From assembly GCA_032718475.1 (NCBI GenBank), contig JAUCBJ010004384.1:1-45964 (forward strand): a stretch of DNA of 45,964 nucleotides, given 5' to 3'. Every line of letters starts with the position of its first letter. Position 1 is the stretch's first letter. This DNA comes from Nemertoderma westbladi (taxonomy: Eukaryota; Animalia; Xenacoelomorpha). Positions 12,197 through 45,614 of this stretch are shown here, one piece after another. The notes beneath the pieces were generated by a model that was not told the DNA's origin, made no database searches, and worked only from the letters and a program-made list of their open reading frames with translations. Made by a program: the position numbers and the translations under genes.

Positions 12197-13249
12197 TTAT
12201 TTGGGCGGATTCTTCCTCACAAAGTCTACTCCCTTCTGGATGGATGTCTTGAGTTCGTCCTTGGCGCCTTCGATTAGTGCAAGTTCCCGAGGGTTGAGCC
12301 CCCCGATGCCGAGGTTGCGAGCGATCCCATCGACGCCCAACTCGATTGGACTCGAGAAGAAGTCGAGCCCCGGAACCACATCGGAGGCGACGTAAGCGCA
12401 CTCTACGATACCGCGATCGCCCAGCAAAGCTTTAATAAGCGAGTTAGTGAAGCGCGCGCCGGCGAAGGCCATAGAGAGAGTGGCGCTGCCGGCGCCCGCC
12501 TTGGCCTTGACGACCTCCGTGCCGGCGTCCTGGATCCGCGGGATCAGTGTGTCCAGCTGGGCCTCGGATAGTTTCACCGGGGGGATCGACTTGGAGATAC
12601 ACGGGATAATGGTGATCCCGGCGTGTCCTCCGACCACGGGGACGTTGACCCCGGTGGGATCCATCCCGGCCAGCTCGGCCACGAAGGTGTTCGCGCGAAC
12701 GATATCCAAAGTCGTCACACCGAATATCCGCTTGGGGTCGTACTTACCCGCGGCCTTGAAGACCTCCGCGGTGATGGGAACCGTGGAGTTAACGGGGTTG
12801 GCTATGATGGCGATCATCGCGGTTGGGCAGTAACGAGCGCACGCGGTCGACAGACTCGCCACGATGGAGGCGTTCGTGTTGAACAGATCGTCTCGAGTCA
12901 TCCCGGGTTTACGGGGGACGCCGGCGGGGATGACGACCGCGTTGCAGCCGGTCAGACAGGCGGACAGCTCGTCCGGCCCGGTATGGCCTGTTACTGTGGC
13001 CGGAGTGTCGATGTGACTGAGGTCCGCCGCCACTCCGGGACAGTTGACGATGTCATAGAGTGCGAGGTGCTTGATGGAAGGGTTGTTTTTCAGGAGAAGC
13101 GATAGAGGTTGCCCGATACCGCCCACTGCTCCGAGAACGCCAACCTTCATTCCGCGGTTGGGAACGCCGGCGAATCGGTTGGGAACGGATGAAAGTCGAC
13201 TGGAAGAGGAGCGGAGAGAACGGGAGAGCGGTTGCAACAGAGACATCAT
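12197..13249 (-). CDS. MDH2: Mitochondrial malate dehydrogenase, single exon, 350 aa
   Basis: Arg/Ser-rich N-terminal presequence. Motifs [53 protein letters not shown] and [12 protein letters not shown]. Confidence 0.97.
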
Positions 13250-16542: not shown

Positions 16543-17238
16543 TTAGGATAATTCGAAACCGGTGTTACTGTGGATGGAATAGCGGAGTTTATCTTTTAAT
16601 GTGGATTTCTTCGTATAATTCGGTAGTTTCAACAAGTTGAAACAGGTTGAGGATGTGGGTAGTCGGGAGATTGGTTCGCGTTTCCGGATGGAGAAGAAAC
16701 CGCGGACGACGGAACCGAGGGTATCGCCGGTGTCCTGTTCGTCGGCGACCTCGACGCAACGGACGGAGAACGGCGGCTCCAGATGGGCGAACCCGAGCAG
16801 CGGGGGCTTCGAGCAGCTCGTCACGAACTTGAGGAAGAGACGTCTCTCCACGGCGTCGAAGTCCCGCTCGACGACGTCCCACATCCACAGCACCACTCGG
16901 TGGTTGCCGTGGTACCCCCCGTAGTACTGCGTGTGTCTGCGGAGGTCCGCCACGTCTAGGTCCACCGTGTCCCCCGATATCAGCCGCTGCAGCTCGGCCG
17001 GGGAGAACATAGCGAGCCAGTCCGGGTCAATGACCTTCCGGAAGCCCCGCACGAAGGCCGCGGTCTGCTCTTTTATCTGCGTCACCATCCGGAAATGGGC
17101 CATGAGATGGACGTAGGATATTCGGTTCTCGTTAGTTACCGGTATGCGACTTCCTCCCGGGACCAGCTCGTGGGTTACGATCTCACCAAGGACTTCCTCG
17201 TCTGTAGAGAAACTCAGTCCCAAATCCTCCACGTCGCC
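16543..17238 (-). CDS. UBE3B: UBE3B exon 2 (HECT C-terminal part, 231 aa + stop)
   Basis: Acceptor TTTCTAG|GGC GAC GTG (GDVEDLGL...). Contains [17 protein letters not shown] with the catalytic Cys and the C-terminal TGFELS typical of UBE3B/C. Confidence 0.95.
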
Positions 17239-19444
17239 CTAGAAACCGGATGTTTACAATAATAAGATCCAACATAGTTCGCCGAATGATATTCAGTAAC
17301 CAAAATAATAAACGTTCCCTCAAATAAATTCGCAGGTAATAAACGGGACAGTTAATTTCGGAAAATAAATAAAAATGTTCTACTTCGATAGGAAATTAAT
17401 AAAATATTTGTTAAATTTTAAGTAATTAAACAGGACTAAGGATGATCCAACTCTATAGCAAATGGAGCGGAAAAAATGAATTCGCCACCAGCGGGGAATT
17501 GTTAAATTTAGTTTGAAAAATTAAAAACATTTAGAATACCATCGGGGTCACACAGGGATCGGGTTCTCTGATGGTCAGACCATAACGGTCACACAGGTGT
17601 CGGGTCCTCTGATGGTCAGATCATGACGGTCACACAGGTGTCGGGTCCTCTGATGGTCAGACCATAACGGTCACACAGATGTCGGGTCCTCTGATGGTCA
17701 GACCATAACGGTCACACAGGGGTCGGGTCCTCTGATGGTCAGACCATAACGGTCACACAGGGGTCGGGTTCTCTGATGGTCAGACCATAACGGTCACACA
17801 GGTGTCGGGTCCTCTGATGGTCAGATCATGACGGTCACACAGGTGTCGGGTCCTCTGATGGTCAGACCATAACGGTCACACAGATGTCGGGTCCTCTGAT
17901 GGTCAGACCATAACGGTCACACAGGGGTCGGGTCCTCTGATGGTCAGACCATAACGGTCACACAGGGGTCGGGTTCTCTGATGGTCAGACCATAACGGTC
18001 ACACAGGTGTCGGGTCCTCTGATGGTCAGACCATAACGGTCACACAGGTGTCGGGTCCTCTGATGGTCAGACCATAACGGTCACACAGGTGTCGGGTCCT
18101 CTGATGGTCAGACCATAACGGTCACACAGGGGTCGGGTCCTCTGATGGTCAGACCATAACGGTCACACAGGGGTCGGGTTCTCTGATGGTCAGACCATAA
18201 CGGTCACACAGGTGTCGGGTCCTCTGATGGTCAGACAATAACGGACACACAGGTGTCGGGTCCTCTGATGGTCAGACCATAACGGTCATACAGGTGTCGG
18301 GTCCTCTGATGGTCAGACCATAACGGTCATACAGGTGTCGGGTCCTCTGATGGTCAGACAATAACGGTCACACAGGTGTCGGGTCCTCTGATGGTCAGAC
18401 CATAACGGTCACACAGGTGTCGGGTCCTCTGATGGTCAGACCATAACGGTCACACAGGTGTCGGGTCCTCTGATGGTCAGACCATAACGGTCATACAGGT
18501 GTCGGGTCCTCTGATGGTCAGACCATAACGGTCACACAGGTGTCGGGTCCTCTGATGGTCAGACAATAACGGTCACACAGGTCTCGGGTCCTCTGATGGT
18601 CAGACCATAACGGTCACACAGGTGTCGGGTCCTCTGATGGTCAGACCATAACGGTCATACAGGTGTCGGGTCCTCTGATGGTCAGACCATAACGGTCACA
18701 CAGGTGTCGGGTCCTCTGATGGTCAGACCATAACGGTCACACAGGGATCGGGATCTCTGATGGTCAGACCATAACGGTCACACAGGTGTCGGGTCCTCTG
18801 ATGGTCAGACCATAACGGTCATACAGGTGTCGGGTCCTCTGATGGTCAGACCATAACGGTCATACAGGTGTCGGGTCCTCTGATGGTCAGATCATAACGG
18901 TCACACAGGTGTCGGGTTCTCTGATGGTCAGACCATAACGGTCACACAGGTATCGGGTCCTCTGATGGTCAGACCATAACGGTCACACAGTGATCGGGTT
19001 CTCTGATGGTCAGACCATAACGGTCACACAGGTGTCGGGTCCTCTGATGGTCAGACCATAACGGTCATACAGGTGTCGGGTCCTCTGATGGTCAGATCAT
19101 AACGGTCACACAGGTGTCGGGTTCTCTGATGGTCAGACCATAACGGTCACACAGGTGTCGGGTCCTCTGATGGTCAGACCATAACGGTCACACAGGTGTC
19201 GGGTCCTCTGATGGCCAGACCATAACGGTCACACAGGTGTCGGGTCCTCTGATGGTCAGACCATAACGGTCACACAGGGATCGGGTCCTCTGATGGTCAG
19301 ACCATAACGGTTACACAGGGATCGGGTCCTCTGATGGTCAGACCATAACGGTCACACAGGGATCGTCTGACGGTCTTAGGTTTTACATCTTAAGCGAAGA
19401 AGTTGGTGCGAAAACTTCAATGGATCAAAAAATTGTAAACATCC
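17239..19444 (-). other. UBE3B: UBE3B intron, 2206 bp, non-canonical GG..AG, transposon-like with TIRs
   Basis: The in-frame join KHYE|GDVEDL needs donor GAG|GGATGT and acceptor TTTCTAG|. TIR GGATGTTTACAAT-N5-GATCCA lies at 19444-19421 and 17248-17271. Confidence 0.8.
17546..19365. repeat. 41-bp minisatellite (GGTCACACAGGTGTCGGGTCCTCTGATGGTCAGACCATAAC), ~44 copies, intronic
   Basis: Directly visible; unit starts at 17587 and 17628 are 41 apart. Confidence 0.98.
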
Positions 19445-21943
19445 CTCATAATGTTTGAGAAAAGTGAGATTCTTATAAAGATCCTGGTCCAGAGACGGTA
19501 GATCGTCCATGCTGCTGTAAGTGGCTCTCTGTTTGCCCAGAATGTTACTGAGAAAGAAAGTAGCCAACGGTACTTCCACCAACAGCCCCTCGTACAAACT
19601 CTTGGCCAACATTTTGCCGACGAACTCGAATAGTTGCAGATGGGATTCCTGTATGGAACTGGAAGTAGACGGGTACAGCTGGTTGGACGAGGTCAGTTTG
19701 AATAGATTCAACCCGGGGTCGAACACCCGCTGTATGGTCTCTTCGAGGAACTCTTTGAACACGCCGTCCTGGTCGATGCCCGGCTCGTCGAGGCCCTGCG
19801 CGTTCACGAACTTCACCCGGATGACGCCCTTGACGCTCCGCGGCTCGAGCCGGGCGAGTTGCTCGTAGCCGTCCTCGACGACTCGATCGCGTCGGATCGT
19901 AACGACAGTCCGCAACACCGCCGAGTTCCGCCCGCCCCGCCCCCCAGTCGTTAAGGACTCACGCTCCCGGGCCACCAATTTGCGGAAGAGCGTGACCCGA
20001 TCGCGGTGTTCCAGAACATGGGGGATCGAGTGGAGAAGAAGATGGGAGCGCCGCGAGCCGCGTTCCTGTTCGGCGAGGAACGCGGGAGCTCGGAGTTCCT
20101 TAACGACCCAGGAACCGTCGGCTAGGAACGTTCGTCGGCTGTCCTTGTCGTAGAGGAGGACGAGGAGGGAATGGAGCGAGGAGAAGAGAGTCGGATGCGA
20201 ATCGACGAGTTCCAGATGGTTCCAGACGAGGTGGAACAGCGTCCAGTTTAGCAGCAGACCCATCGAGTTGAGGTCGTCCAGACGGAAAGGTTTCTCGTCC
20301 ACGTAGATCTCCGTCTCGTCCAGGACACCGACGAGATGCGCGGCGGCGTCGGCGAACAGAACGAGTAGCGGTTCCACCCTGAGTCGGATGTCCGGCTCCG
20401 AGAGGACCACGTCGCCCAGCAGGCGGAAGTTGCCGCCGCTGAGCACGCAGAGGAAGTGCCAGACCCTGAGAAGCAGGTCGGGATGGAAGGCGAGCCCGGA
20501 AAGAATGTCGAGTCGGAGTTGCGAGAGAGTCGACAGGCAGGAGCCATAGAGACTGGCGACACGGCAGACCAACTCAACCTGGGGGGTCGATATAAAGCAA
20601 ATTATATCCTTGGCTGACACTTTGTTTCCTTTACGAAGCAGCGAAGTCCCCTTCATAAATCCGAATGGTTTCTTCCCGGAATCCGCATTTCCCCTTTTGT
20701 GATTGGCTGTTACCACCACGGGGGGAGTCTCAGTCTGCCCCATGGAGGCGTCCAGCAGCAGACTCACCATGTCTGTCTGCCATAGTAAGCGGAGTTGTCT
20801 GCCCACGACAGGCATCGCCTCGTATATGCGAGAGTCGGTAGGCTGGTTGAACCAGCCCAGCACCGGATGCCAACTGGTCAGGTTGGACCGCTTGGACGAA
20901 ACGTAGGATTTACATTTCTCGAGGAGGGCGGCGATCACCCCGATAAACAGGGAAAGATTATTGGTCAGTCCGGTCTGGTCGCTCTGTCCCAACTGGATCA
21001 GGTTAGCTAATAAACAGAGAGCGTAGGTGCCTTCCAACGAGTTGAAGGCAATCTTGAGGGATTGTTCTACCGAGAGGAGTTGGAGGCAATGAGCGAGCAA
21101 CGAGTGACGTTTACACAGCTCCATACACTCGGGGGAGATGGCGGCTGAATGGTGGAGGAGTGAGGGGATAGATAGAATGTGGACGACGTAGTTGGCGAGG
21201 AGAGTCGGGGAGAAGTCTGCGGCGATTAACGGTCGTAGCGATAGTGTTAGTAAACTCGATAAAGAGGATCTCTTTAACTGCGGGGATGATCTCGCTAAAC
21301 CTTTAAGTAAAACCTCTTGCAGCACCAAATATAATCCATTCGTATGTAGGTGTCCCAATATATTGTGGCATATTTGGATTAAATTAGTTTTTAACTGATC
21401 CGTGACGCCTTTAGACTGTACAAGTTTCCAGGATGCCGTGTCAGTGAAGGTGATTAACATGTGCAGACACAATGTCATGTGGCGGCTGTCCGACGGGCTA
21501 GCCGGGTTAAGTTTCCGCAGCCAAGCGCTGCATTCCATGAGGAGTCGTTTAATATGCCGGATCCAATCGAGGGCGTGTTGCCGTGACAAAGCGACACTAA
21601 CATACCAACACCGGGGTTGGTTGGACTCCATAGAGGATAATATATAGCGGATAATAATCTCCAACATGGCGTCGTGTTCGCCATGGAACACGGCTAAATA
21701 CTTACGCACGATCTTGTAAACTTCTACAGCCCCAATAGTGCTCGAATTCTCCTCCGAGAGACATAAATTCCCATTAATCTCCTCGACTATGGAAGATTTT
21801 AACCGTTTCCTAACAAGGTAACCCTTGGCAACCGCTTGTATTGCAATGGCACTTCGTTCCTTCTTTTTATCCAACTCTCGTTCGAATCGCGCTTGTTTCG
21901 CTTGCGATAACAACTCATCCTTTTCCATAGCAACGCAGAACAT
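19445..21943 (-). CDS. UBE3B: UBE3B exon 1 (IQ motif to HECT N-lobe, 833 aa; spliced product ~1064 aa)
   Basis: N-terminal AIAIQAVAKGYLVR IQ motif, LTSWHPVLGWF, and the HECT start IRVKFVNAQGLDEPGIDQDGVFKEFL. Confidence 0.95.
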
Positions 21944-23818: not shown

Positions 23819-25124
23819 GCACACGGACAGACGGAGGTGAGATTTAACTGCAGATTTAAAAGAATGTTGATTATCTAGTTATCTAAACTACTCAACTAAA
23901 TCTATTTATCTAAGTAAGTCTATCTTTTCACAGACAGAAAGACTGCAAGGATTTGCACTCGACTACATACGATGGCAGTTGGTTCCAGTCCAGATTGTAT
24001 TTAATAATATATATAATAATTAATTAATTAATATCATAATAGGCCTAATCAATTAACAATTAAGGATAGTAATTTATAAATTACAAATTAATGACGAATA
24101 ATTCGGTAATATAAAAACAGCATTATAGCATTAGCCATTATGCATTAGGCCTACATAAACACCACCTTTCTGCCTTTACTACATTACAGCATTAGGCCTA
24201 GCCTAGGCCTTCAGAAAAACAGTATTAATTAATATACAGGAAATAATGCCAACAGTACCGGGCAGTAGGTAATACTAATAGTTTGTTATCTTCGTGCAAC
24301 ACACGAATACTGATAACAGTCCAAAAAAGTTATAGCTTTTGTTTCAAGTTCAGCCATTGCCATTGTCTGCCGCTCTGTATTTTTTGAACAGCTGAATGTC
24401 GGCTAATGTTTGATAACTACGAAAGAATAAACTCAATCAGTGTCTGTAGAAGTTAAACCTGAGAGTAAAAAAAAACCACAAAAATACCATACCAGACATC
24501 TTTTAATATAAAAATTAGCATTATTTTTTGAACGATTATTATAGTAATATAATATTTCAATTATTATGTAAATATACAGGCCTACATTATTATAATACAT
24601 TTTCGGAAATATCTGCTGATCACACGCTTACATTTAAATTTTACAGGGCCTCCCGGGCCAGTGGGGCCCCAAAAGCCTAGCCCTTAATTAACAGAGACAA
24701 ATTTGAGCAAAAATAATTTTTTTTTATTTTTAAAATTTTTTTTTAATTGAAAAAAAAAGACCATTTCATATTTGCAATACTACACAACGTTTAAAAAATC
24801 CCCTCGCTTCGCTCGCGTTTTGCTTTACATTCATTTAAATGATATGTTTGATCGCTTGCGATCTAGGTGGCGTCCAGCATCACATCATCAATATCATTAA
24901 ATATTTCAATGAATTCTAGTTACATACTATAATTGTTACATAACAGTGCAATATTTTAGTTTTTTTTTCTTTATGCGAATAAATAAATCAAATGTCAATT
25001 ACTTATGTCTATGACCTAGATATAACTTGTCTGTAAACTACTTGTCTATAAATTGTCTATTACTGGATCTGGGGCTGTGTGGCTGTGGCTAACATGTAAG
25101 TCAGCTGAATTATGTAACTATGGC

Positions 25125-26710
25125 CAATTGTTTGCTGACCCACTGTAAACCGACGACCTTATAATGCATTGGCCACTGTTTGCTGCCGACCAGTAAACCG
25201 ACGACCATAATGCACTGGCCACTGTTTGCTGCCGACCAGTTGTTTGCTGCCGACCAGTAAACCGACGACCATTTAATGCACTGGCCACTGTTTGCTGCCG
25301 ACCAGTAAATCGACGACCTTATAATGTACTGGCAACTGTTTGCTGCCGACCAGTAAACCGACGACCATTAATGCACTGGCCACGGTTTGCTGCCGACCAG
25401 TAAACCGACGACCAAATATGCACTGGCCACTGTTTGCTGCCGACCAGTAAACCGACGACCATTTAATGCACTGGCCACTGTTTGCTGCCGACCAGTAAAC
25501 CGACGACCATATAATGCACTGGTCACTGTTTGCTGCCGACCAGTAAACCGACGACCATATAATGCACTGGCCACTGTTTGCTGCCGACCAGTAAACCGAC
25601 GACCATATAATGCACTGGCCACTGTTTGCTGCCGACCAGTAAACCGACGACCATATAATGCATTGGCCACTGTTTGCTGCCGCCCAGTAAACCGACGACC
25701 ATATAATGCACTGGCCACTGTTTGCTGCCGACCAGTAAACCGACGACCATATAATGCACTGGCCAATGTTTGCTGCCGACCAGTAAACCGACGATCATAT
25801 AATGCACTGGCCACTGTTTGCTGCCGACCAGTAAACCGACGACCTTATAATGCACTGGCCACTGTTTGCTGCCGACCAGTAAACCGACGACCATATAATG
25901 CACTGGCCACTGTTTGCTGCCGACCAGTAAACCGACGACCATATAATGCACTGGCCACTGTTTGCTGCCGACCAGTAAACCGACGACCTTATAATGCACT
26001 GGCCACTGTTTGCTGCCGACCAGTAAACCGACGACCATATAATACACTGGCCACTGTTTGCTGCCGACCAGTAAAAAGACGACCATATAATGTACTGGTC
26101 ACTGTTTGCTGCCGACCAGTAAACCGACGACCATATAATGCACTGGCCACTGTTTGCTGCCGACAAGTAAACCGACGGCCTTATAATGCACTGGCCACTG
26201 TTTGCTGCCGACCAGTAAACCGACGACCATATAATGCACTGGCCACTGTTGGCTGCCGACCAGTAAACCGACAACCATATAATGCACTGGCCACTGTTTG
26301 CTGCCGACCAGTAAACCGATGACCATATGCACTGGCCACTGTTTGCTGCCGACCTGTAAACCGACGACCATATAATGCACTGGCCACTGTTTGCTGCCGA
26401 CCAGTAAACCGACGACCATATAATGCACTGGCCACTGTTTGCTGCCGACCAGTAAACCGACGACCATATAATGCACTGGCCACTGTTTGCTGCCGACCAG
26501 TAAACCGACGACCATATAATGCACTGGCCACTGTTTGCTGCCGACCAGTAAACCAACGACCATATAATGCACTGGCCACTGTTTGCTGCCGACCAGTAAA
26601 CCAACGACCATATAATGCACTGGCCACTGTTTGCTGCCGACCAGTAAACCGACGACCATATAATGCACTGGCTACTGTTTGCTGCCAACCATAAACCGAC
26701 GACCATATAA
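25125..26710. repeat. 48-bp minisatellite (GCCGACCAGTAAACCGACGACCATATAATGCACTGGCCACTGTTTGCT), ~33 copies
   Basis: Directly visible. Some units carry frame-breaking indels, so the overlapping ORFs are artefacts. Confidence 0.98.
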
Positions 26711-27663
26711 TATGGTCACATAAAACCAACGAAAAGTGGAAAAAATCTTCTGAGTCGCCAACCACATTCGACGTCAATTAATAATTCTCGAATAGTTATT
26801 TAAACTGTTGGAACACAATTATTGTTACATTATTATATAAATTTATCATCAATCTGGATTTATCCTCGTACCACTTTGCAGCGTTACGGCCTATAGGACG
26901 GAACTTTGTAAAGTAATCACCAACTTAGTAACAAAACACTTCTAGAACTCGTCTTGAATATTCGTCATTGTTGATAGTCATTGTAGGCTAAGTAGGGATG
27001 GCATAACGAAACGAGAAAATAACGTAGCGAAAAAATCTTAAACGAAACTAAATAAAAAATACATGTAAAAAAACGACACGAAATAATTAGTGTTTCGTTT
27101 CGTTAAATTTTTTTCGTTTCATTAAATTAAAAAGTAATTAATCATTACGATCTAAATTTATTAATATATTAAAATAGTACTTTTTTTCCCTAGGAAATAA
27201 AAAGGTAATCAATAGGATTGCATTGATTTTTTCCCGGCGAAAAAAAGTAAAATTAAATATTTTTGGTGGAATTTCTTAAATTGTATTCCATATATTGAAA
27301 GAGCATCGACGTAGAAAAGGTTTGGAAGTCATTTGACCCAAAATGGCTCAAAAGTTATTACAACTTTAGAGTCTGTAAGACGAACTCCAAAACGGAACTC
27401 AATATCCAATATTGGTTTATTTTGTTAATCGGCTCTCTAGTTACGTAATAAATATCCGAGAACACTAAATTATTTAACATTGAGTAAGGCAGCATCAGGA
27501 GTTGAAGAGTACAATAATTAGAATCGCAGTAACTATGGAAGCAAAAATAGTAAAATACTACAGTTCAATTTATTTAGTAACACAACTGTACTGTAGTATA
27601 TCGCTCTATTTTTTATTAAAGAATTGAGCAACAAAAAAGTAACAATTTAGGAATAAAGTTACG

Positions 27664-28916: not shown

Positions 28917-29450
28917 TTAACTGTAAAAATCGTAAACCGATTCTGAAGCATTGAGTTTGTTGTCTGACTCAGGATCCGAGCTGTCCCAACCACTGGCGTC
29001 CTGGGAGACACTAAAATCCATCTGTTTATCGTAAATGTAGTCTGGATCCCCAGGGCCCTTCCTATTCTTCTCAAACAACTCTTCCATAATCGCTTTCTTA
29101 AGATCGAGAATTCCATCGTCGACCTTATTGAGGTCCTCATCAGGGTCTATAGATTGCTCCTTTTTCAGTCTTTCCAATGTTTCTACCATTTCAATGCCAT
29201 TAAGGTGGTCCCTTATGATGATCAACATCTTCTCGAGCAGCCACAAAGGTACGTTCTCGAGGTAGCGGGAATGTCTCACGTTGCTCCGAATCTCGAGCGC
29301 AACGGCTTCAATGGAGGAATTCTTATCCAAGTTTCGTACCGGCATCGTTCGCTGACGCGGTCTCGGAGTAGAATCGTCCCTGTAAACAACGATAACAGCC
29401 GGTGGATCGAATCTGATTCCAATCTTGCTAACAGATATAGAAGCCATCAT
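28917..29450 (-). CDS. CEP19: Centrosomal protein of 19 kDa, single exon, 177 aa
   Basis: KIGIRFDPPAVIVVY, RQRTMPVRN, IDPDEDLNK, MEELFEKN...DPDYIYD and a terminal GWD. First ATG at 29450; the ORF track starts at an upstream TTG. Confidence 0.93.
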   Translation of the reverse strand: MMASISVSKIGIRFDPPAVIVVYRDDSTPRPRQRTMPVRNLDKNSSIEAVALEIRSNVRHSRYLENVPLWLLEKMLIIIRDHLNGIEMVETLERLKKEQSIDPDEDLNKVDDGILDLKKAIMEELFEKNRKGPGDPDYIYDKQMDFSVSQDASGWDSSDPESDNKLNASESVYDFYS

Positions 29451-30034: not shown

Positions 30035-31678
30035 TAAAACGTCTGTCCTTATCTGATCTGATCTGATCTGATCTGACGGTATCTGACACTTGTTCCACCT
30101 TGGTTCAGAGCGCACCTTGGTGTAGTGGTTATATTGAATTCACATCTCTCGGAGGTTGTGGGTTCAACCCCGGCATGGGGCCAAGGTAGTTTTCGTTTCG
30201 GCACGAATGTTTTGAAGGGTTTAGCGAGGCATCTCTGCCTTGCATCCTTAAATGGTAGCTAAATGAGTACTGGACTTTCTGCCTATGTCAGCATGTGAAG
30301 TTTCCCCGGTATTCCCCTTTTAAACCCGGGGGGTGTCAATATAATACTTCCCGCTCTGAAACTAACGATACTAACTAAAATACTAACTGAAACTAACTAA
30401 AAGGAATTCAAATAAAATAAGCTAGAAATTTTAAATTTGTTTTTAGCGGCTGGTGCCAAATTTTGGTGTCGGTCCATGTGAAGAATACCGCCCATGTGAA
30501 GCATACCAGGATTTCACTTTTCGGTTGACTTTTATTGGAATTTTATATTTGAAGGTTTTAATTCTTTTTTAATTTATCTTTATTGAGTGTATTATAGAGC
30601 TTATTTATGTCTTATAACCTGCACATATACTAATTCGTTTATTGTTTTGGTTATATTCAGTGTAACCTGTGTTTTTGGTGAAAACCTGGTATTCTTCACA
30701 TAGGGGTAACTGCAAAGTGAAATAAAACTGCAGAAAGTCTGGTATTCTTCGCCCATGTGAAGAATACAAGGATTTCATTTTTCGGTCGATATTTTTTATT
30801 AAATTTGTCTTTATTAAGTGTTTTATGCGCGTGCGCGATGTCCTTTATTTTTTGAGGGGGATGATCTATTGATCAGTCAGTGGGACGGTTAGTAAGAAGG
30901 TGACCGGTGTAACTGTGTAAACAAGCCGCCGCGGTAACATATTCTACTTTCCCTCAATTGGTAGGTAACAAAATCGTTTATTGTTTTGGTTAGAAAACCC
31001 TGTCTCGGTAACCTGCTCCTTTCCCAATTTGTAGGTAACAACGTCGTTTATTGTTTTGGTTAGAAATTACAGCCGCTGTAACCTGCTCTTTTCCTTCAAT
31101 TGGAAGGTAATAAGTGTTTATAAATTCCCACATTCCCATCCACCTTCCCCTATTCTTTAATAAATAGTAAAATTAATAAATTTCTTAAATTTCATACATA
31201 TTTTAAATGTAATATATTAATAAGAATCATTACCGTACTTAATTAATAATATTAATTATAATTAATATAATTAACTTTAACTATTAATAATGATAACTAT
31301 TAACAAGAAAGATTTACGAGAAAAATATTGCAGCAAATGCTGTATTGTTTTTAATAAAAGTTTAATATTTCAACACCAACTAACAGACTAAATCTACGAC
31401 TTTCATACCCACCATCCTTCATCCTACTGTATATCGCATTTTTAATATATAATAACATGCCTTTGTGCATTTAGATGCATACCGATATGCCTGTACTGCT
31501 ACTTCATATGATGATACTGATACGTAACAGGCAACCTGAAACGTGATCCCCTATTCAGCTATTGGCTATTTACCTAACAGACAGTTAGGTAAATATTATA
31601 TCTCTTTCTCCTGATTGGTTATAGGATCAGATGCTGTCAGATCAGATCAGATCAGATCAGATAAGGACAGATGTTTTA
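30035..31678. mobile_element. Nested non-autonomous element with 52-bp inverted arms containing (ATCTG)n
   Basis: TAAAACGTCTGTCCTTATCTGATCTG...ATCTGA (30035-30086) and its reverse complement at 31627-31678, 3 mismatches. Confidence 0.8.
30108..30400 (+). mobile_element. tRNA-derived SINE
   Basis: A box TGGTGTAGTGG, B box GGTTCAACCCC, non-tRNA body and a (CTAA/CTGAAA)-like simple-repeat tail at ~30355-30400. Confidence 0.65.
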
Positions 31679-32025
31679 TTCTACCTCCTTTAATTTGAAT
31701 GGCTGCTTTAGGGTACTGTACTGTACAGTTGTAGTAATGTAATACCTGTAGGCCTATACAAATGACACTACATGACGCCTATACTGCGCTACTGCACTTC
31801 TGATCCACTCTTGCATTTTGGATGTTCTGCATTCCACTGTCCTACCTACCGGTACCGGTAGGCCTACCCTAAAACACAGGCCTTTGTACTATCTTCTACT
31901 GAGGTAGCCTACTACATACAGTAGGTTTAGTGAGTGATATTCAGTTACTACAGTACTGTACCGGTAGCCTATTATCCAATAATCGAATTTTGAGTTATAT
32001 ATTATAAGGTATAGATTATAATATA

Positions 32026-34347
32026 ATGGCAAGTTGCTACAGTACACGGAAACAACGATCTGAATATCTCCTGATTGGAAAGAGCCTTGATAGTAATTTT
32101 CGAAATTGCCATTTACCATTTAACATTTCTGTTCTTCAAAAAATGGTCTATTTTTGTCGAGAGGAAGGTATTCCCAAGAATAAGTCAGCTGGATTAGTCG
32201 CATCAGAAATCCGGAAAATATGGATGGAGGCAGGTTCTATGTACTATCATAATGAATTGAATGTCCTTGACAAGGTAAGAAAGCTGTATGAGAGGTGGCT
32301 TTCAATTGATAAACAACCACCTGAATGTAGAAAAACTGGCAAAACATTGGAAAGGATAAATAAATTGTCTGAAGAGATGAACAAGCTATTTGATATTTCT
32401 GTTAAGAAACACGATGGTATGCTGCTGCCTGAAGAACGTGAATGGATTCAAAAACTTAGACAGGGAGAAGATCTACCATTTCTGAAATCAAGGGATTTGA
32501 AATACGAAGAGGAAGCTATGAAACAAAAAGACAAACTGGACCGTAAACTTGACAGGGAACGGAAAGAAATGCTTAGAAAGCAAAATGACTTGGACAAAAT
32601 TGTTGAACTTGATATGTCGAGGTCTGCTTCAGAGGATGATAGTACTGACTCTGATGTTGACTATCTTCCACCATCTTCAGCAACATCAAGCAAGAGGTGT
32701 GCCTCAGTGCAACTGATGATGCCACGGAACATAATGAATGACCAGACAGTAGCTCAGACTGCTGATCGCATTGGAATTTCATCTGGAGCTGCAACAGCCT
32801 ACACTGCAGCAATTATCAAGGCCAGTGGAGGTAATCTAGATCAGGTCACACTCAGCAAAAGTAGCACACGAAGTGGCCGGTCAGCATCTCGAGCAGCAAG
32901 GGCCAAATATATCAAGGACTCCTTTGATCCTGGAGAACACAAAATTGCAGTCCACTGGGATGGGAAAAAAATGGCTCATCTGAAATGCTCCCTTACAGAT
33001 GTTGATCGATGTGTTGTAGCCATAACTGGCAGTGGTATCCCAAATGCTGATGGCAGCACAAAGTACACAAAACTGTTGGGAATTGGAGCTGCAAGTACTA
33101 GTTCCTCTCGGGACATTACTTCAATAGTACAACGTTACATTTCTGAATGGAATATCAAAGCCTTGGTAGCATTTCTTGTCTTTGACACGACTAATTCTAA
33201 TTCTGGTTGGCTGGATGGCACCTGTGTACAGCTGGAGAAGTGGTTAGATCGGCGAGTGATATGGCTTGCCTGCCGCCACCACATTGGGGAGGTTATAGTC
33301 AGTGCAGTACACAGCCTGGTATTTGGTGCAACCAGTGGCCCTAGTCCCCGATTCCATGGTAGACTACGAGAACAATGGATAGCCCTAGATCTAACAAAGG
33401 GTCAATGTCTACCTGATACTGATAAATATGTCCAGGAAAGACATGACCTTAAGGAACTGTTGGGCACTATTAACTGCCGTGCCGATTATCGAGAACTTCT
33501 CGTACTTGCCATTTTTCTACTTGGTGGCGAATACCCACATACATTCTATCAGCCTGGTGCTGATTCCAACGCCAGGTGGATGGCCAGCCTGATGTATGCT
33601 TTTAAATTATATATATTCAGAGGTCAACTTCACCAGAAGACACAAGGTAGTATCCATCTTGAGCAGCGACTTGAGCGCTTTGTTCAGTTTGTTGCCAGCA
33701 CATATGTTGGATGGTGGATACGGTGTCCAGTGCTAGTGGATGCTCCCAGAAATGATTTGGAGTTATATTTCAGGGCACTGAATTTATCTGATGTTGAACT
33801 GGGACAAGTGGTAATAAAGAAACTAACTGGCCATCTGTGGTACCTGAGGCAGGAAGTGGTACCTGTTAGTCTGGCAAATGATCGGGTCTCCAATGAACAA
33901 AAGGAGAGGATTGCTATTGCGATGCTCGAAGCTAAACCAAATGATGATCGACGGGATCTTTCTGTGGCAGCAGTGGTCAAGAAAGGAACCAAGATTAGTC
34001 GTGAGGTTCCACCAAACAATGTAAACCTGAACAATGGCACAACTTTGGAGGATCTCATTGGCCCTGATTCATGGCTAATGCCCCAGTTGTTGGGGTTGTC
34101 ATTTGATTGGTTACACCAAAAACCAGCAACTTGGGTACTCTATGATGATTACAATCAATTTTGTTGTATTATCAATGACAAGGATCCCGTGAATGACCTG
34201 TCAGAAAGACTTATCCGTACCCAGGCAATTTACAATGGACTCCTTACTAAGGATGAGAAGGAACATCAAGCTGTACTACAAGTCGTTGAAGACAGTCGCA
34301 AGAAAGTTCCAGATTTTCAAAAGCGTACTCTCAAGAAAAGACTCTGA
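32026..34347 (+). CDS. DDE transposase, 773 aa, intact
   Basis: VHWDGK (D), FDTTNSNSG (D), LACRHH (CxxH), ARWM, HLWYL and VNDLSER (E). No stops; lies inside the TIR/TSD-bounded element. Confidence 0.9.
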   Translation: MASCYSTRKQRSEYLLIGKSLDSNFRNCHLPFNISVLQKMVYFCREEGIPKNKSAGLVASEIRKIWMEAGSMYYHNELNVLDKVRKLYERWLSIDKQPPECRKTGKTLERINKLSEEMNKLFDISVKKHDGMLLPEEREWIQKLRQGEDLPFLKSRDLKYEEEAMKQKDKLDRKLDRERKEMLRKQNDLDKIVELDMSRSASEDDSTDSDVDYLPPSSATSSKRCASVQLMMPRNIMNDQTVAQTADRIGISSGAATAYTAAIIKASGGNLDQVTLSKSSTRSGRSASRAARAKYIKDSFDPGEHKIAVHWDGKKMAHLKCSLTDVDRCVVAITGSGIPNADGSTKYTKLLGIGAASTSSSRDITSIVQRYISEWNIKALVAFLVFDTTNSNSGWLDGTCVQLEKWLDRRVIWLACRHHIGEVIVSAVHSLVFGATSGPSPRFHGRLREQWIALDLTKGQCLPDTDKYVQERHDLKELLGTINCRADYRELLVLAIFLLGGEYPHTFYQPGADSNARWMASLMYAFKLYIFRGQLHQKTQGSIHLEQRLERFVQFVASTYVGWWIRCPVLVDAPRNDLELYFRALNLSDVELGQVVIKKLTGHLWYLRQEVVPVSLANDRVSNEQKERIAIAMLEAKPNDDRRDLSVAAVVKKGTKISREVPPNNVNLNNGTTLEDLIGPDSWLMPQLLGLSFDWLHQKPATWVLYDDYNQFCCIINDKDPVNDLSERLIRTQAIYNGLLTKDEKEHQAVLQVVEDSRKKVPDFQKRTLKKRL

Positions 34348-37907: not shown

Positions 37908-38097
37908 CTAGCAGAGTAGTCAAATAGTCTGCTAGTACTGTAGTACCTTCGCTTGCTACCTCCTACCTCTGCAGCTCTGTGCTCTACCCAGCTACTTCCA
38001 GAACTGTAGGTCATGTAGGTAGTGTAAGGCTGTAAGGTAAGGTAGGCTTACTGCATACTGTGTCTGTCTGTCTGTGTACCTGTACCGGTACTGTACC

Positions 38098-39690
38098 GAT
38101 ATCTCCTTTGCAGAAGTGAAGGCTGCTGCAAAGAGCATTAAGACCAATCGTGCCAGTGGAGTAGATGGTGTTCCCCCTGAGGTCTTTAAAATACCTGAGG
38201 TTTTAAAGCTCATCTATCCCATCATAGTAGACATGTACCGTACAACAAGAGTCCCACAAGAAATGAAAACAAATAAGTTGGTGCCAGATGCCAGTTCCCA
38301 AGAAGGGCAACCTATGGTTCTTTTCGGGGAATCTCATTGATCTCGATTGCTGCAAAGCTATACAATAGAATTCTATTAAATCGCATCAGGGATCCCATTG
38401 AGAGACTGCTCCGTGGAAATCAGAATGGGTTCCGTAAAGGTCGTGGGACCGACCATGGAGCCCATTTTGGCACTTAGAAGGATAATTGAAGAGTTATCAA
38501 AAAAGAAAGACAGGCATCTGGCTGTTATCTTTATTGACTTCTTCAAGGCCTTTGATTCAGTCTCTCGCTCACGTATGTTCAGCATACTTTCATTATATGG
38601 GATTCCTGATGAAATTATTGCAGCAATCAGATCAGTATACGATGGTTCGACAACATTTGTGTCTACTGTTGACGGTGACACAGAACCATTTGAAGTGTTA
38701 TGGGGCGTCCTCCAGGGAGACACACTTGCACCATTTTTGTTCATAATTGTTGTTGACTATGTTCTACGCATGTCCTTAGATCATCATAATGATGATGGGG
38801 TGATGATAACTCCACCTACTGGCTCCAGAAGTCGAGGAAATCCTGCCAAGTACCTAACTGATCTAGACTTTGCTGATGACTTGGAGTACTCTCAGAATCA
38901 CTAGAGGGAGCCCAACGGCTCTTCAGCTCATTAGAACATGCTGCTTCTAGTGTTGGTCTTTTTATTAACTCGGCAGAAAGACCAAAATTTTGACAGTTAA
39001 CTTTGAAAGTCCTCAGCAAGTCTCTGATCGGATGAGCATAAGCTCAAAAGATGGTATGCTGAGCATGTGGATGACTTCTGCTACCTGGGATCATGGATCC
39101 GGAAGTCAGGTGAGGACCTTCGAATACGTAAGGGAAAGGCATGGGCAGCCTTGAATAGGCTTTCCAGGATTTGGAAGTCACCGAGAATTAATCGGAAACT
39201 TAAGGTCCGATTATTTAGAGCAGCAGTAGTTCCAGTACTCCTCTATGGGAGTCCATGCTGGGCTCTAACTGCTGAGGACACCAAATCTCTGGATGGCACA
39301 TTCACAAGAATGCTACGCCGGGTTCATTGTGTCAAGTACAATGCACACATCTCCAACCAGACACTATATAACATTGGAGGTGTCTCATTGGTTCCCCCAA
39401 GCTTGACACTAGAACAAAAGCGCCTCTGCTTTGCAGGACATTGCTTTCGCCGTGAGGACCAGCCAGTGCATAATCTTGTACTTTGGCAGCCTCATGGAGT
39501 GAATAAGCATGGTGGACAGCCCATGACTTTCTTGAGACGCATCTTAAAGGACACTGGCCTTGAAGATGCGGATGATCTAGCAAATGTCATGGGTGATAGG
39601 GAGTTGTGGCGGTGCAATTTTGTCGATAAGCCGGCACAGCATTCTTAAAAATGCAGCTGCAATGCAGCATGCCGATCCTAGTAGTAGTAG
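38098..39690 (+). pseudogene. 5'-truncated non-LTR retrotransposon (RTE-like) reverse transcriptase, frameshifted
   Basis: ASGVDGVP, FIDFFKAFDSV, GVLQGDTLAPFLF, FADD, FCYLGS and C-terminal DRELWR, split across frames with internal stops. (TAG)n tail ~39679-39692. Confidence 0.9.
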
Positions 39691-39839: not shown

Positions 39840-40090
39840 GACACTAGTGTCAAATAGGGGAAGGGGACCCTCCTAATATGCTTCTGCTAACTGAAATCAC
39901 CTGCTAATCCTGATATTTAGCAGGTGATAACAATATTCCTAACTCTCGTTTATTATTTTGGTTCCTTTCAACTCGCCTCTGTAACCTGCTCCTTTACTAA
40001 CCGGGCACTAGTGACTTCAGTTTATGTGATTTCAGATTCAGGATTAGCAGGGTAGGACTGTAGGAGGGTTCCCTATTTGACACAAGTGCC
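39840..40090. mobile_element. MITE, 251 bp, 8-bp TSD GGCCTATG (Merlin-like)
   Basis: TIR GACACTAGTGTCAAATAGGG versus reverse complement GGCACTTGTGTCAAATAGGG. TSD at 39832-39839 and 40091-40098. Confidence 0.85.
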
Positions 40091-40815: not shown

Positions 40816-40986
<171 letters not shown>

Positions 40987-41290
40987 TAAAAAATACCTAC
41001 AGACCTAGAGACCTTTGATTAATCACTGTGTTTCACTGTAAGATCACTGTCTGTAATAAAACACTGTGTTTGTGTACCATGCGTAAGGCGTAACACGGAT
41101 CTGAGCCTAAAGCACTCAGAGAGGTCTGCCGCAGAGCTGCACAGTCTCACTGATGCGGGGTCTACAGCCCGACTCCTTGTCCATACCCCATGTAGAATAG
41201 GTTACACCATGCCAACTATCATACATTTTAACTTCATTAGTAGCAACTATAATTATTTATTTATCGTTAACCAAAGGTGTATATCTATAA

Positions 41291-41605
<315 letters not shown>

Positions 41606-42473: not shown

Positions 42474-42952
42474 TACGTACCGTAACGTACCGTACCGTAC
42501 CGTACCGTACCGTACCGTACCGTACCGTACCGTACCGTACCGTACCGTACCGTACCGTACCGTACTGTACCGTACCGTACCGTACCGTACCGTACCGTAC
42601 CTTACCGTACAGTACCGTACTGTACCGTGCCATACCACGTACCGTACCGTACAGTACCGTACCGTGCCGTACCACGTACCGTACCGTACCGTACCGTACC
42701 GTACCGTACCGTACCGTACCGTACCGTACCGTACCGTACCGTACCGTACCGTACCGTACCGTACCGTACCGTACCGTACCGTACCTTACCGTACAGTACC
42801 GTTCCGTACCGTACCGTACCGTACCGTACCGTACCGTACCGTACCGTACCGTACCGTACCGTACCGTACCGTACCGTACCGTACCGTACCGTACCTTACC
42901 TTACCTTACCGTACCGTACCGTACCGTACCGTACCGTACCGTACCGTACCGT
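42474..42952. repeat. (CCGTA)n pentanucleotide microsatellite
   Basis: Directly visible; the YRTVP ORFs are artefacts. Confidence 0.99.
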
Positions 42953-44954: not shown

Positions 44955-45610
44955 CTAGAGCGCACTGGCTGGTCCTCACGGCGAAAGCAATGTCCTACAA
45001 AGTGGACGCGGCTCCGTTCAGGAGAGATTAATGAAACACCTCCAATGTTGTATAGAGTCTGATTGGAGTTGTGTTCATTGTAGTTGACACAATGAACCCG
45101 ATGTAACATTCTTGTGAAAGTGCCATCCAGAGATTTGGTGTCCTCATCAGTTAGAGACCATCATGGACTTACATATAAGAGTACTGGTTCTACTGCTGCC
45201 CTACATAATCGAACCTTGAAATTCAGTTTCATTCTATGGGAGTTCCAAATCCTGGACAGACTATTCAATGCTGCCCATTCCTTTCCCTTGCGTTTTCGAA
45301 GGTCCTCATCTGACTTCCGGTGTTCCAGATCCATAATCCACATACTGAATCATAATATCCTTTGAGATCAGAGGATTTACTGGTCAGAGACTTGCTGAGG
45401 ACTTTCAAAGTTAATTGTCAAAATTTTGGTCTTCTTCGAGTTAAAAAATAGATCACAACTAGAAGCAGCCTGTTCTAATGAGCTGAGGAGCAGTTGGGCT
45501 CCCTCTAGTGATTCTGAGAGTACTCCTAAGTCATCAGCAAAGTCTAGATCAGTTAGTGTACTTGGTAGGATTTCCTCGACTTCTGGAGCCAGTAGGTCGA
45601 GTTACCATCA
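44955..45610 (-). mobile_element. Degraded inverted copy of the same RTE-like LINE
   Basis: Reverse complement matches 38810-39470 (PTGSRSRGNP, EDLRKRKGKEWAALN, KVRL.RAAV.PVLLY). Confidence 0.9.
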
Positions 45611-45614
45611 CTAT

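Follow-up and report, generated by a model that had tools for sequence, protein, structure and literature searches.

A putative introner-like insert with a predicted GG-AG junction in the UBE3B gene of Nemertoderma westbladi

In a 45,964 nt contig of Nemertoderma westbladi (JAUCBJ010004384.1; this whole stretch of DNA is referred to as the window), the UBE3B gene carries a single intron-like interruption and is otherwise uninterrupted. The insert responsible is likely a non-autonomous DNA transposon (MITE) with GG-terminal inverted repeats, and GG-AG is probably the junction at which it is spliced out, whatever the origin of that junction. On balance, and with less assurance, we also favour a fuller model in which a MITE-derived intron is spliced GG-AG and duplication of the insertion target gave the acceptor. 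The insert is likely introner-like, at a single putative locus.

The UBE3B gene and its insert

The closest proteins to both exons were animal UBE3B sequences, with a top identity of 45% for exon 1 (71 matches) and up to 75% for exon 2 (105 matches). The Pfam HECT profile is divided across the insert, positions 4-97 lying in exon 1 and positions 104-306 in exon 2 (Table 1). No protein from the same species or a close relative was found among these matches, or among the 9 matches to the neighbouring MDH2 (best 68%), and 0 of 5 exact look-ups gave one. In a tree of 59 UBE3B sequences, from which 5 partial rows were left out, the protein sits on a long branch, apart from the protostomes and deuterostomes sampled, with a support of 0.10 for the split. 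Third-position GC climbs along the gene (16546-21940, minus strand) from about 0.5 to 0.7-0.9 and drops to 0.53 over the final 32 codons ahead of the insert.

Introns are scarce in the other genes of the window. MDH2 and CEP19 have none, and the sole intron of GABARAP (430 nt, canonical GT-AG) is the only other one found, a scarcity that suggests heavy intron loss. For acoelomorphs, the available part of PMC10565955 reports a high repeat content and genes with few exons. Literature on acoels was searched for non-canonical splicing, and none was found; nothing was found on UBE3B exon structure in the literature searched.

Table 1 Features of the UBE3B locus and of other parts of the window
Feature	Position	Strand	Description
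UBE3B exon 1	19445..21943	-	Open frame, 833 codons from first Met; IQ motif and initial third of HECT domain
Last 9 bases of exon 1	19445..19453	-	His-Tyr-Glu codons, end AG; proposed upstream target-duplication copy
Insert, predicted phase-0 GG-AG intron	17239..19444	-	2,206 nt, begins GG, ends AG
Left terminal inverted repeat	19421..19444	-	First bases are the predicted GG donor
41-nt minisatellite	17546..19360		1,815 nt, 44.3 copies, 95% matches; units 2.6% off consensus
AT-rich unique interior of insert	17272..17545	-	
Right terminal inverted repeat	17248..17271	-	Ends CC on transcribed strand
Spacer	17239..17247	-	9 nt, ends in TAG acceptor; proposed decayed downstream target-duplication copy
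UBE3B exon 2	16543..17238	-	231 codons (17238-16546) and stop; remainder of HECT domain
MDH2	12197..13249	-	No introns
CEP19	28917..29450	-	No introns
GABARAP intron	40912..41341	+	
16-nt motif, other positions in window	23660 (-), 30637, 30976, 31046, 39948		
ORF, candidate transposase-like frame	32008..34347	+	About 773-779 codons

The coordinates and letters given for the insert in the initial annotation were confirmed against the sequence, as was the inverted repeat described there at the two ends of the insert. The arms match at 20 of 24 positions, comprising a perfect outer block (13/13), a divergent block (1/5) and a perfect inner block (6/6). Of 14 offsets tried, a single one gave this match, with 4-9 matches at the others, and it is the offset at which exactly 9 nt separate the second arm from exon 2, as had been proposed. 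None of 100,000 Markov-simulated ends reached the inverted-repeat score of 16 (simulated maximum 14), which places the repeat above chance. Without its minisatellite the insert measures about 390 nt, which is MITE-sized; its interior has no ORF of at least 80 aa and no transposase. The two ends of the insert can pair as a duplex (-35.5 kcal/mol, a value without shuffle control), and the 3′ 361 nt of the intron fold no better than shuffled sequence (z +1.11). The 41-nt minisatellite unit contains short palindromes.

The predicted splice junction

Candidate junctions were scanned by pairing every G-starting donor in a stretch reaching 90 nt upstream and 66 nt downstream of the proposed site with every AG in a stretch reaching 310 nt upstream and 90 nt downstream of the proposed acceptor. 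The joins were scored with a profile built from 63 homologues, the 71 matches less 8 that were distant or partial. The initial annotation had presented GG-AG as the only AG-ending in-frame boundary, which proved incorrect, as the scanned range holds 82 open-frame G-AG pairs, including a GA donor 3 nt upstream and weak GT and GC donors. Its choice of GG-AG as the favoured join was upheld: this pair ranks first of the 82 with 672.9 bits, followed by the GA donor 3 nt upstream (664.1 bits) and the best GT donor (654.5 bits), and it reproduces the residue spacing of 61 of the 63 homologues. Of 11 positions compared with the 5′ end motif of U1, the GG donor pairs at 7, the other donors compared at 5 or fewer, and the canonical GABARAP donor at 8. 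Neither the GG donor nor its 2-nt shifted, AT-starting form matches the extended U12 donor consensus. No clear branch-point motif was seen in the last 80 nt of the intron, and an Rfam search gave 0 matches in 11000-45964, hence no snRNA gene there.

The first residues encoded by exon 2 agree with the family consensus (of the 63 homologues, 57 have the G, 59 the D and 63 the L), and these codons are therefore still under selection. Retention of the insert would lead to a stop 22 codons in, ahead of most of the HECT domain. Because the arms have diverged at 4 of 24 positions and the array has grown, while both exons are open, UBE3B has likely worked with the insert in place.

Readings in which this junction is not used as predicted were weighed against the same data. 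An insertion that is simply disruptive, in a copy or allele that is not properly spliced and represents a null allele or young pseudogene, is unlikely. Across most animals a GG donor is a great rarity (a count of 32 among 222,263 human introns is cited in PMC5714493), and the organism's own protein is absent from the database matches to both exons; however, 833 and 231 codons are open, conserved residues run up to both junctions, an in-frame AG is present exactly where needed, and the insert is old enough for its arms to have diverged and its array to have grown. Splicing from another donor, either the GA 3 nt upstream (with Glu lost) or one of two weak GT sites, 29 and 58 nt into the insert, joined to an AG within exon 2, would draw on open-frame pairs that do exist, and GA is commoner than GG in copepods (PMC5714493) and in introners (PMC9860276) in the available parts of these sources. 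This is quite improbable given that these donors match U1 at 3-5 of 11 positions, that the GA site is without an exon-end AG, and that the GT options replace or delete conserved residues at a cost of 18-48 bits. Finally, the G at 19443 could be an assembly error or rare variant in a canonical GT intron, still transposon-derived, and a T at +2 would make a good canonical donor. The right arm, however, has the complement of this G, and an error that restores the repeat is unlikely, making this reading very improbable; the initial annotation had used the repeat to argue against a sequencing error in the same way, and its argument stands with the weight of one base.

Position of the insert and the proposed target duplication

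The position of the insert was checked in metagenome contigs, using the best 80 of 324 related loci, a sample that is biased toward transcripts and intron-poor genes and has no close relative among its loci. The insert site is spanned without an intron in 75 of these 80 loci, and 4 start after the site. Stop-containing insertions were present elsewhere in the gene in 9 of 12 loci checked, and at the insert site in 0 of 12. From these alignments the position of the insert looks new. The initial annotation had asked whether orthologues lack an intron here, as these 75 loci do; an older site 9 nt upstream had been missed.

Evidence for this older site came from one of the best 80 loci (L074, a distant HECT ligase), which breaks 9 nt upstream of the insert site. 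Between its Lys and His (2870-2895) lie 16 additional nucleotides, GT...AG, without counterpart in the otherwise identical L055, which we read as either a very short intron or a retained one that has collapsed. Gene models from Trichobilharzia (P0101) and Magallana (P0075) have intron-like sequence up to the same His, with Gln just before it. Together, these loci and models indicate an older intron site at K/H, exactly 9 nt upstream of the insert site and coinciding with the 5′ edge of the proposed target duplication. The corresponding Lys is residue 834 in the fish protein P0042, and a human UBE3B exon boundary presumably lies at the same Lys. Near-intron pairs normally mean either that an old intron was lost before the new one was gained, or that an intron slid (available part of PMC2891723). 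Loss followed by gain fits the window, where GABARAP has one intron, MDH2 and CEP19 are without any and UBE3B has no other. The exact 9-nt coincidence with the older K/H site is not accounted for by our model and speaks against it.

The 9-mers flanking the element had been proposed in the initial annotation to be copies of a target duplication. The 9-nt offset, the AG at the end of both 9-mers and the exact restoration of the frame fit that proposal, whereas the putative copies themselves are identical at only 4 of 9 positions, near chance (2/7 beyond the AG; 5/9 if the Tyr codon has changed), and 4 matches is the maximum for any duplication length between 2 and 13. The putative 9-mer copies would have decayed next to arms whose outer 13 bp match perfectly, and selection on the acceptor is needed to explain this contrast. 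The differences between the 9-mers run toward a better acceptor (GAG to TAG, with more pyrimidines), which fits such selection. A perfect 4-nt direct repeat, AG/GG, spans both junctions.

In the order of events that we propose, UBE3B would have lost its ancestral introns, including the one 9 nt upstream, and a Merlin- or MULE-like element of roughly 380 nt would have inserted after the His-Tyr-Glu codons, duplicating those 9 bases. The exon AG and the first bases of the element would then have made a donor whose main departure from the U1 consensus is at +2, with the acceptor AG coming from the second duplication copy, such that removal restored the message exactly. The intronic 9-mer would subsequently have drifted toward a better acceptor, and the 41-nt minisatellite expanded inside the intron. 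Removal from GG donor to AG acceptor would be by the major spliceosome, and base-pairing between the arms of the pre-mRNA might help to draw the splice sites together across the array.

Two other histories were considered for the same intron. The AG/GG repeat at both junctions would also be expected if a 4-nt AGGG target (or proto-splice) duplication gave both splice sites, with the element lying between the copies, and Polarella class 14 takes both sites from a 4-nt AGGH duplication (available part of 10.1101/2020.10.14.339549). The Polarella pattern forbids G at the fourth position, however, and three of the four bases are ordinary AG/G splice consensus; the element would moreover be asymmetric, one arm being flush and the other set in by 9 nt, and the complementarity of CC to GG would be down to chance. 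We hold this history to be unlikely, though not negligible. The K/H site indicated by the L074 extra and by the P0101 and P0075 models would allow an ancestral intron to have slid 9 nt, a distance divisible by three, with a MITE later filling or replacing most of it and GG secondarily replacing the GT donor; sliding explained 9 of 31 Drosophila near-intron pairs in the available part of PMC2891723. This is improbable, as the first 9 bases of the old intron must have become His-Tyr-Glu codons, which is unlikely without duplication, and loss then gain is simpler when the other ancestral UBE3B introns are all gone and MDH2 and CEP19 are intronless.

Related elements and known non-canonical introns

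The type of element that would have inserted in the favoured MITE model was considered from its ends. MULE/Mutator elements have a G-terminal TIR, a 9-bp target duplication and a MuDR-type transposase; the geometry of the UBE3B insert fits them as well as it fits Merlin, and does not separate the two. The TIRs of Merlin elements measure 24-462 bp and have a terminal GG; target duplications are 8-9 bp, and internal tandem repeats are often present (available part of PMC8101967). The UBE3B insert shares the terminal GG, a TIR of about 24 bp (imperfect here, with 20/24 matches), the 9-nt geometry and the internal tandem repeats, but it is without a transposase, that of Merlin being of the IS1595-type DDE kind, and its proposed duplication would have decayed to 4/9 identity at the offset of 9.

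A search with nhmmer found no second copy of the element ends in the window. The TIR pattern had 0 matches in viral contigs and 0 in metagenome contigs, collections in which the source organism was not found; among the best 80 of 324 loci it matched once, over 10 nt and by chance (L047). A 16-nt motif at 17313-17298, 41 nt inside the right arm, recurs five times elsewhere in the window (Table 1), where it sits in dispersed repeats, some with inverted ends, that are otherwise unrelated to one another. The motif is usually followed by a short complementary stretch 15-25 nt on, and occurred in 1 of 200,000 simulated segments, a frequency that applies to a motif picked after the fact.

A long ORF in the window (Table 1), which we take to resemble a DDE transposase, was examined as a partner of the element and rejected, having no Pfam family, no plasmid match and no GG-terminal repeat around it. 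No clear terminal repeats were found around this ORF, which falls in unnamed eukaryote clusters in the Atlas at 0.97. Small MITE-like elements with inverted ends, unrelated to the intron arms, lie at about 39842-40088 and 30470-30770. The window also contains two broken LINE-type reverse transcriptase copies that run opposite ways (38041-39648, plus strand; about 44960-45611, minus strand) and are 86-98% alike in matched pieces, as well as long tandem arrays at 1-about 11000, 25121-26711 and 42476-42952, with units of 27, 48 and 5 nt.

The GG donor type is already known in an animal. Among 297 curated introns of the copepod Eurytemora affinis, 5 have GG donors supported by RNA; GA and GG donors account for about 10-12% of introns genome-wide, and these donors occupy newly gained positions whose source was not named (PMC5714493). 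An exon-end AG is obligate for the GG donors, GA and GG donors nearly always have A at +3, and the three GG donors in the available part of the supplement all read AG/GGA (PMC5714493). The UBE3B donor has the same pattern, with an exon ending in AG and A at +3, and shares with the copepod introns a canonical acceptor, a position that looks recently gained and the fact that its use is required for a full-length protein. The copepod genes are intron-rich, their introns are RNA-supported and no transposon origin was proposed for them, whereas UBE3B is intron-poor and its predicted donor lies inside a visible TIR.

Introners with an element-borne donor and an acceptor borne by the target duplication have been described (available parts of PMC9860276 and PMC11282704). 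Introner families have from 5 to over 2,000 copies per genome, and introners are rare in animals, with two groups among 835 animal and plant genomes (available part of PMC9860276). The UBE3B insert has the corresponding arrangement, with one TIR flush with the donor and the other arm 9 nt from the acceptor. As described in the available parts of the same two papers, the introners of Micromonas (IE1) and Chrysochromulina share with it insertion into coding sequence, inverted ends, an acceptor AG predicted from the duplicated target and exact restoration of the message; their donors are GT, GC, GA and AT, in contrast to GG here, and family median lengths are 30-654 nt, in contrast to 2.2 kb and a 9-nt offset here. 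In the animal Fritillaria borealis, non-canonical splice sites are the TIRs of non-autonomous DNA transposons at new positions, as proposed for UBE3B (Henriet et al. 2019, as cited in the available parts of PMC11282704 and 10.1101/2025.08.15.670264). More than 90% of Fritillaria introns are non-GT/AG, mostly AG-AC and AG-AT, and its spliceosome is changed, whereas the UBE3B acceptor is canonical, the donor departs at +2 alone and the other intron of the window is GT-AG. The introner elements of the dinoflagellate Amoebophrya (PMC7789003) share non-canonical ends and an inverted repeat able to pair the intron ends; they differ in being short introns with inverted repeats of 8-20 nt, direct repeats of 3-5 nt and no fixed end dinucleotides.

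Transposon-to-intron conversion, animal introners with non-canonical ends and animal GG donors are thus each known separately, and the copepod and Fritillaria cases make the UBE3B intron less surprising than the initial annotation held. A GG donor from a GG-terminal TIR with a 9-nt offset was not found in the literature searched, and the supplementary tables of PMC9860276 and PMC12130899 may list such families. Searches combining GG-AG with introner, and Merlin with introner and intron gain, returned none, and GG-AG with splicing returned general surveys. Such cases would be apt to escape surveys of annotated introns, since GG donors are not called by standard tools (PMC5714493). As a single putative locus, the UBE3B insert is a good lead rather than a discovery. 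A GG donor inside a visible transposon end would be a concrete candidate source for GG donors, whose origin the copepod paper left unnamed. More broadly, it is conceivable, if doubtful, that a GG-end MITE family of Merlin or MULE type has been re-adding introns to an intron-poor lineage, creating a genome-wide class of GG-AG introners missed by gene finders and surveys, in which pairing of the intron ends may help a standard spliceosome accept GG.
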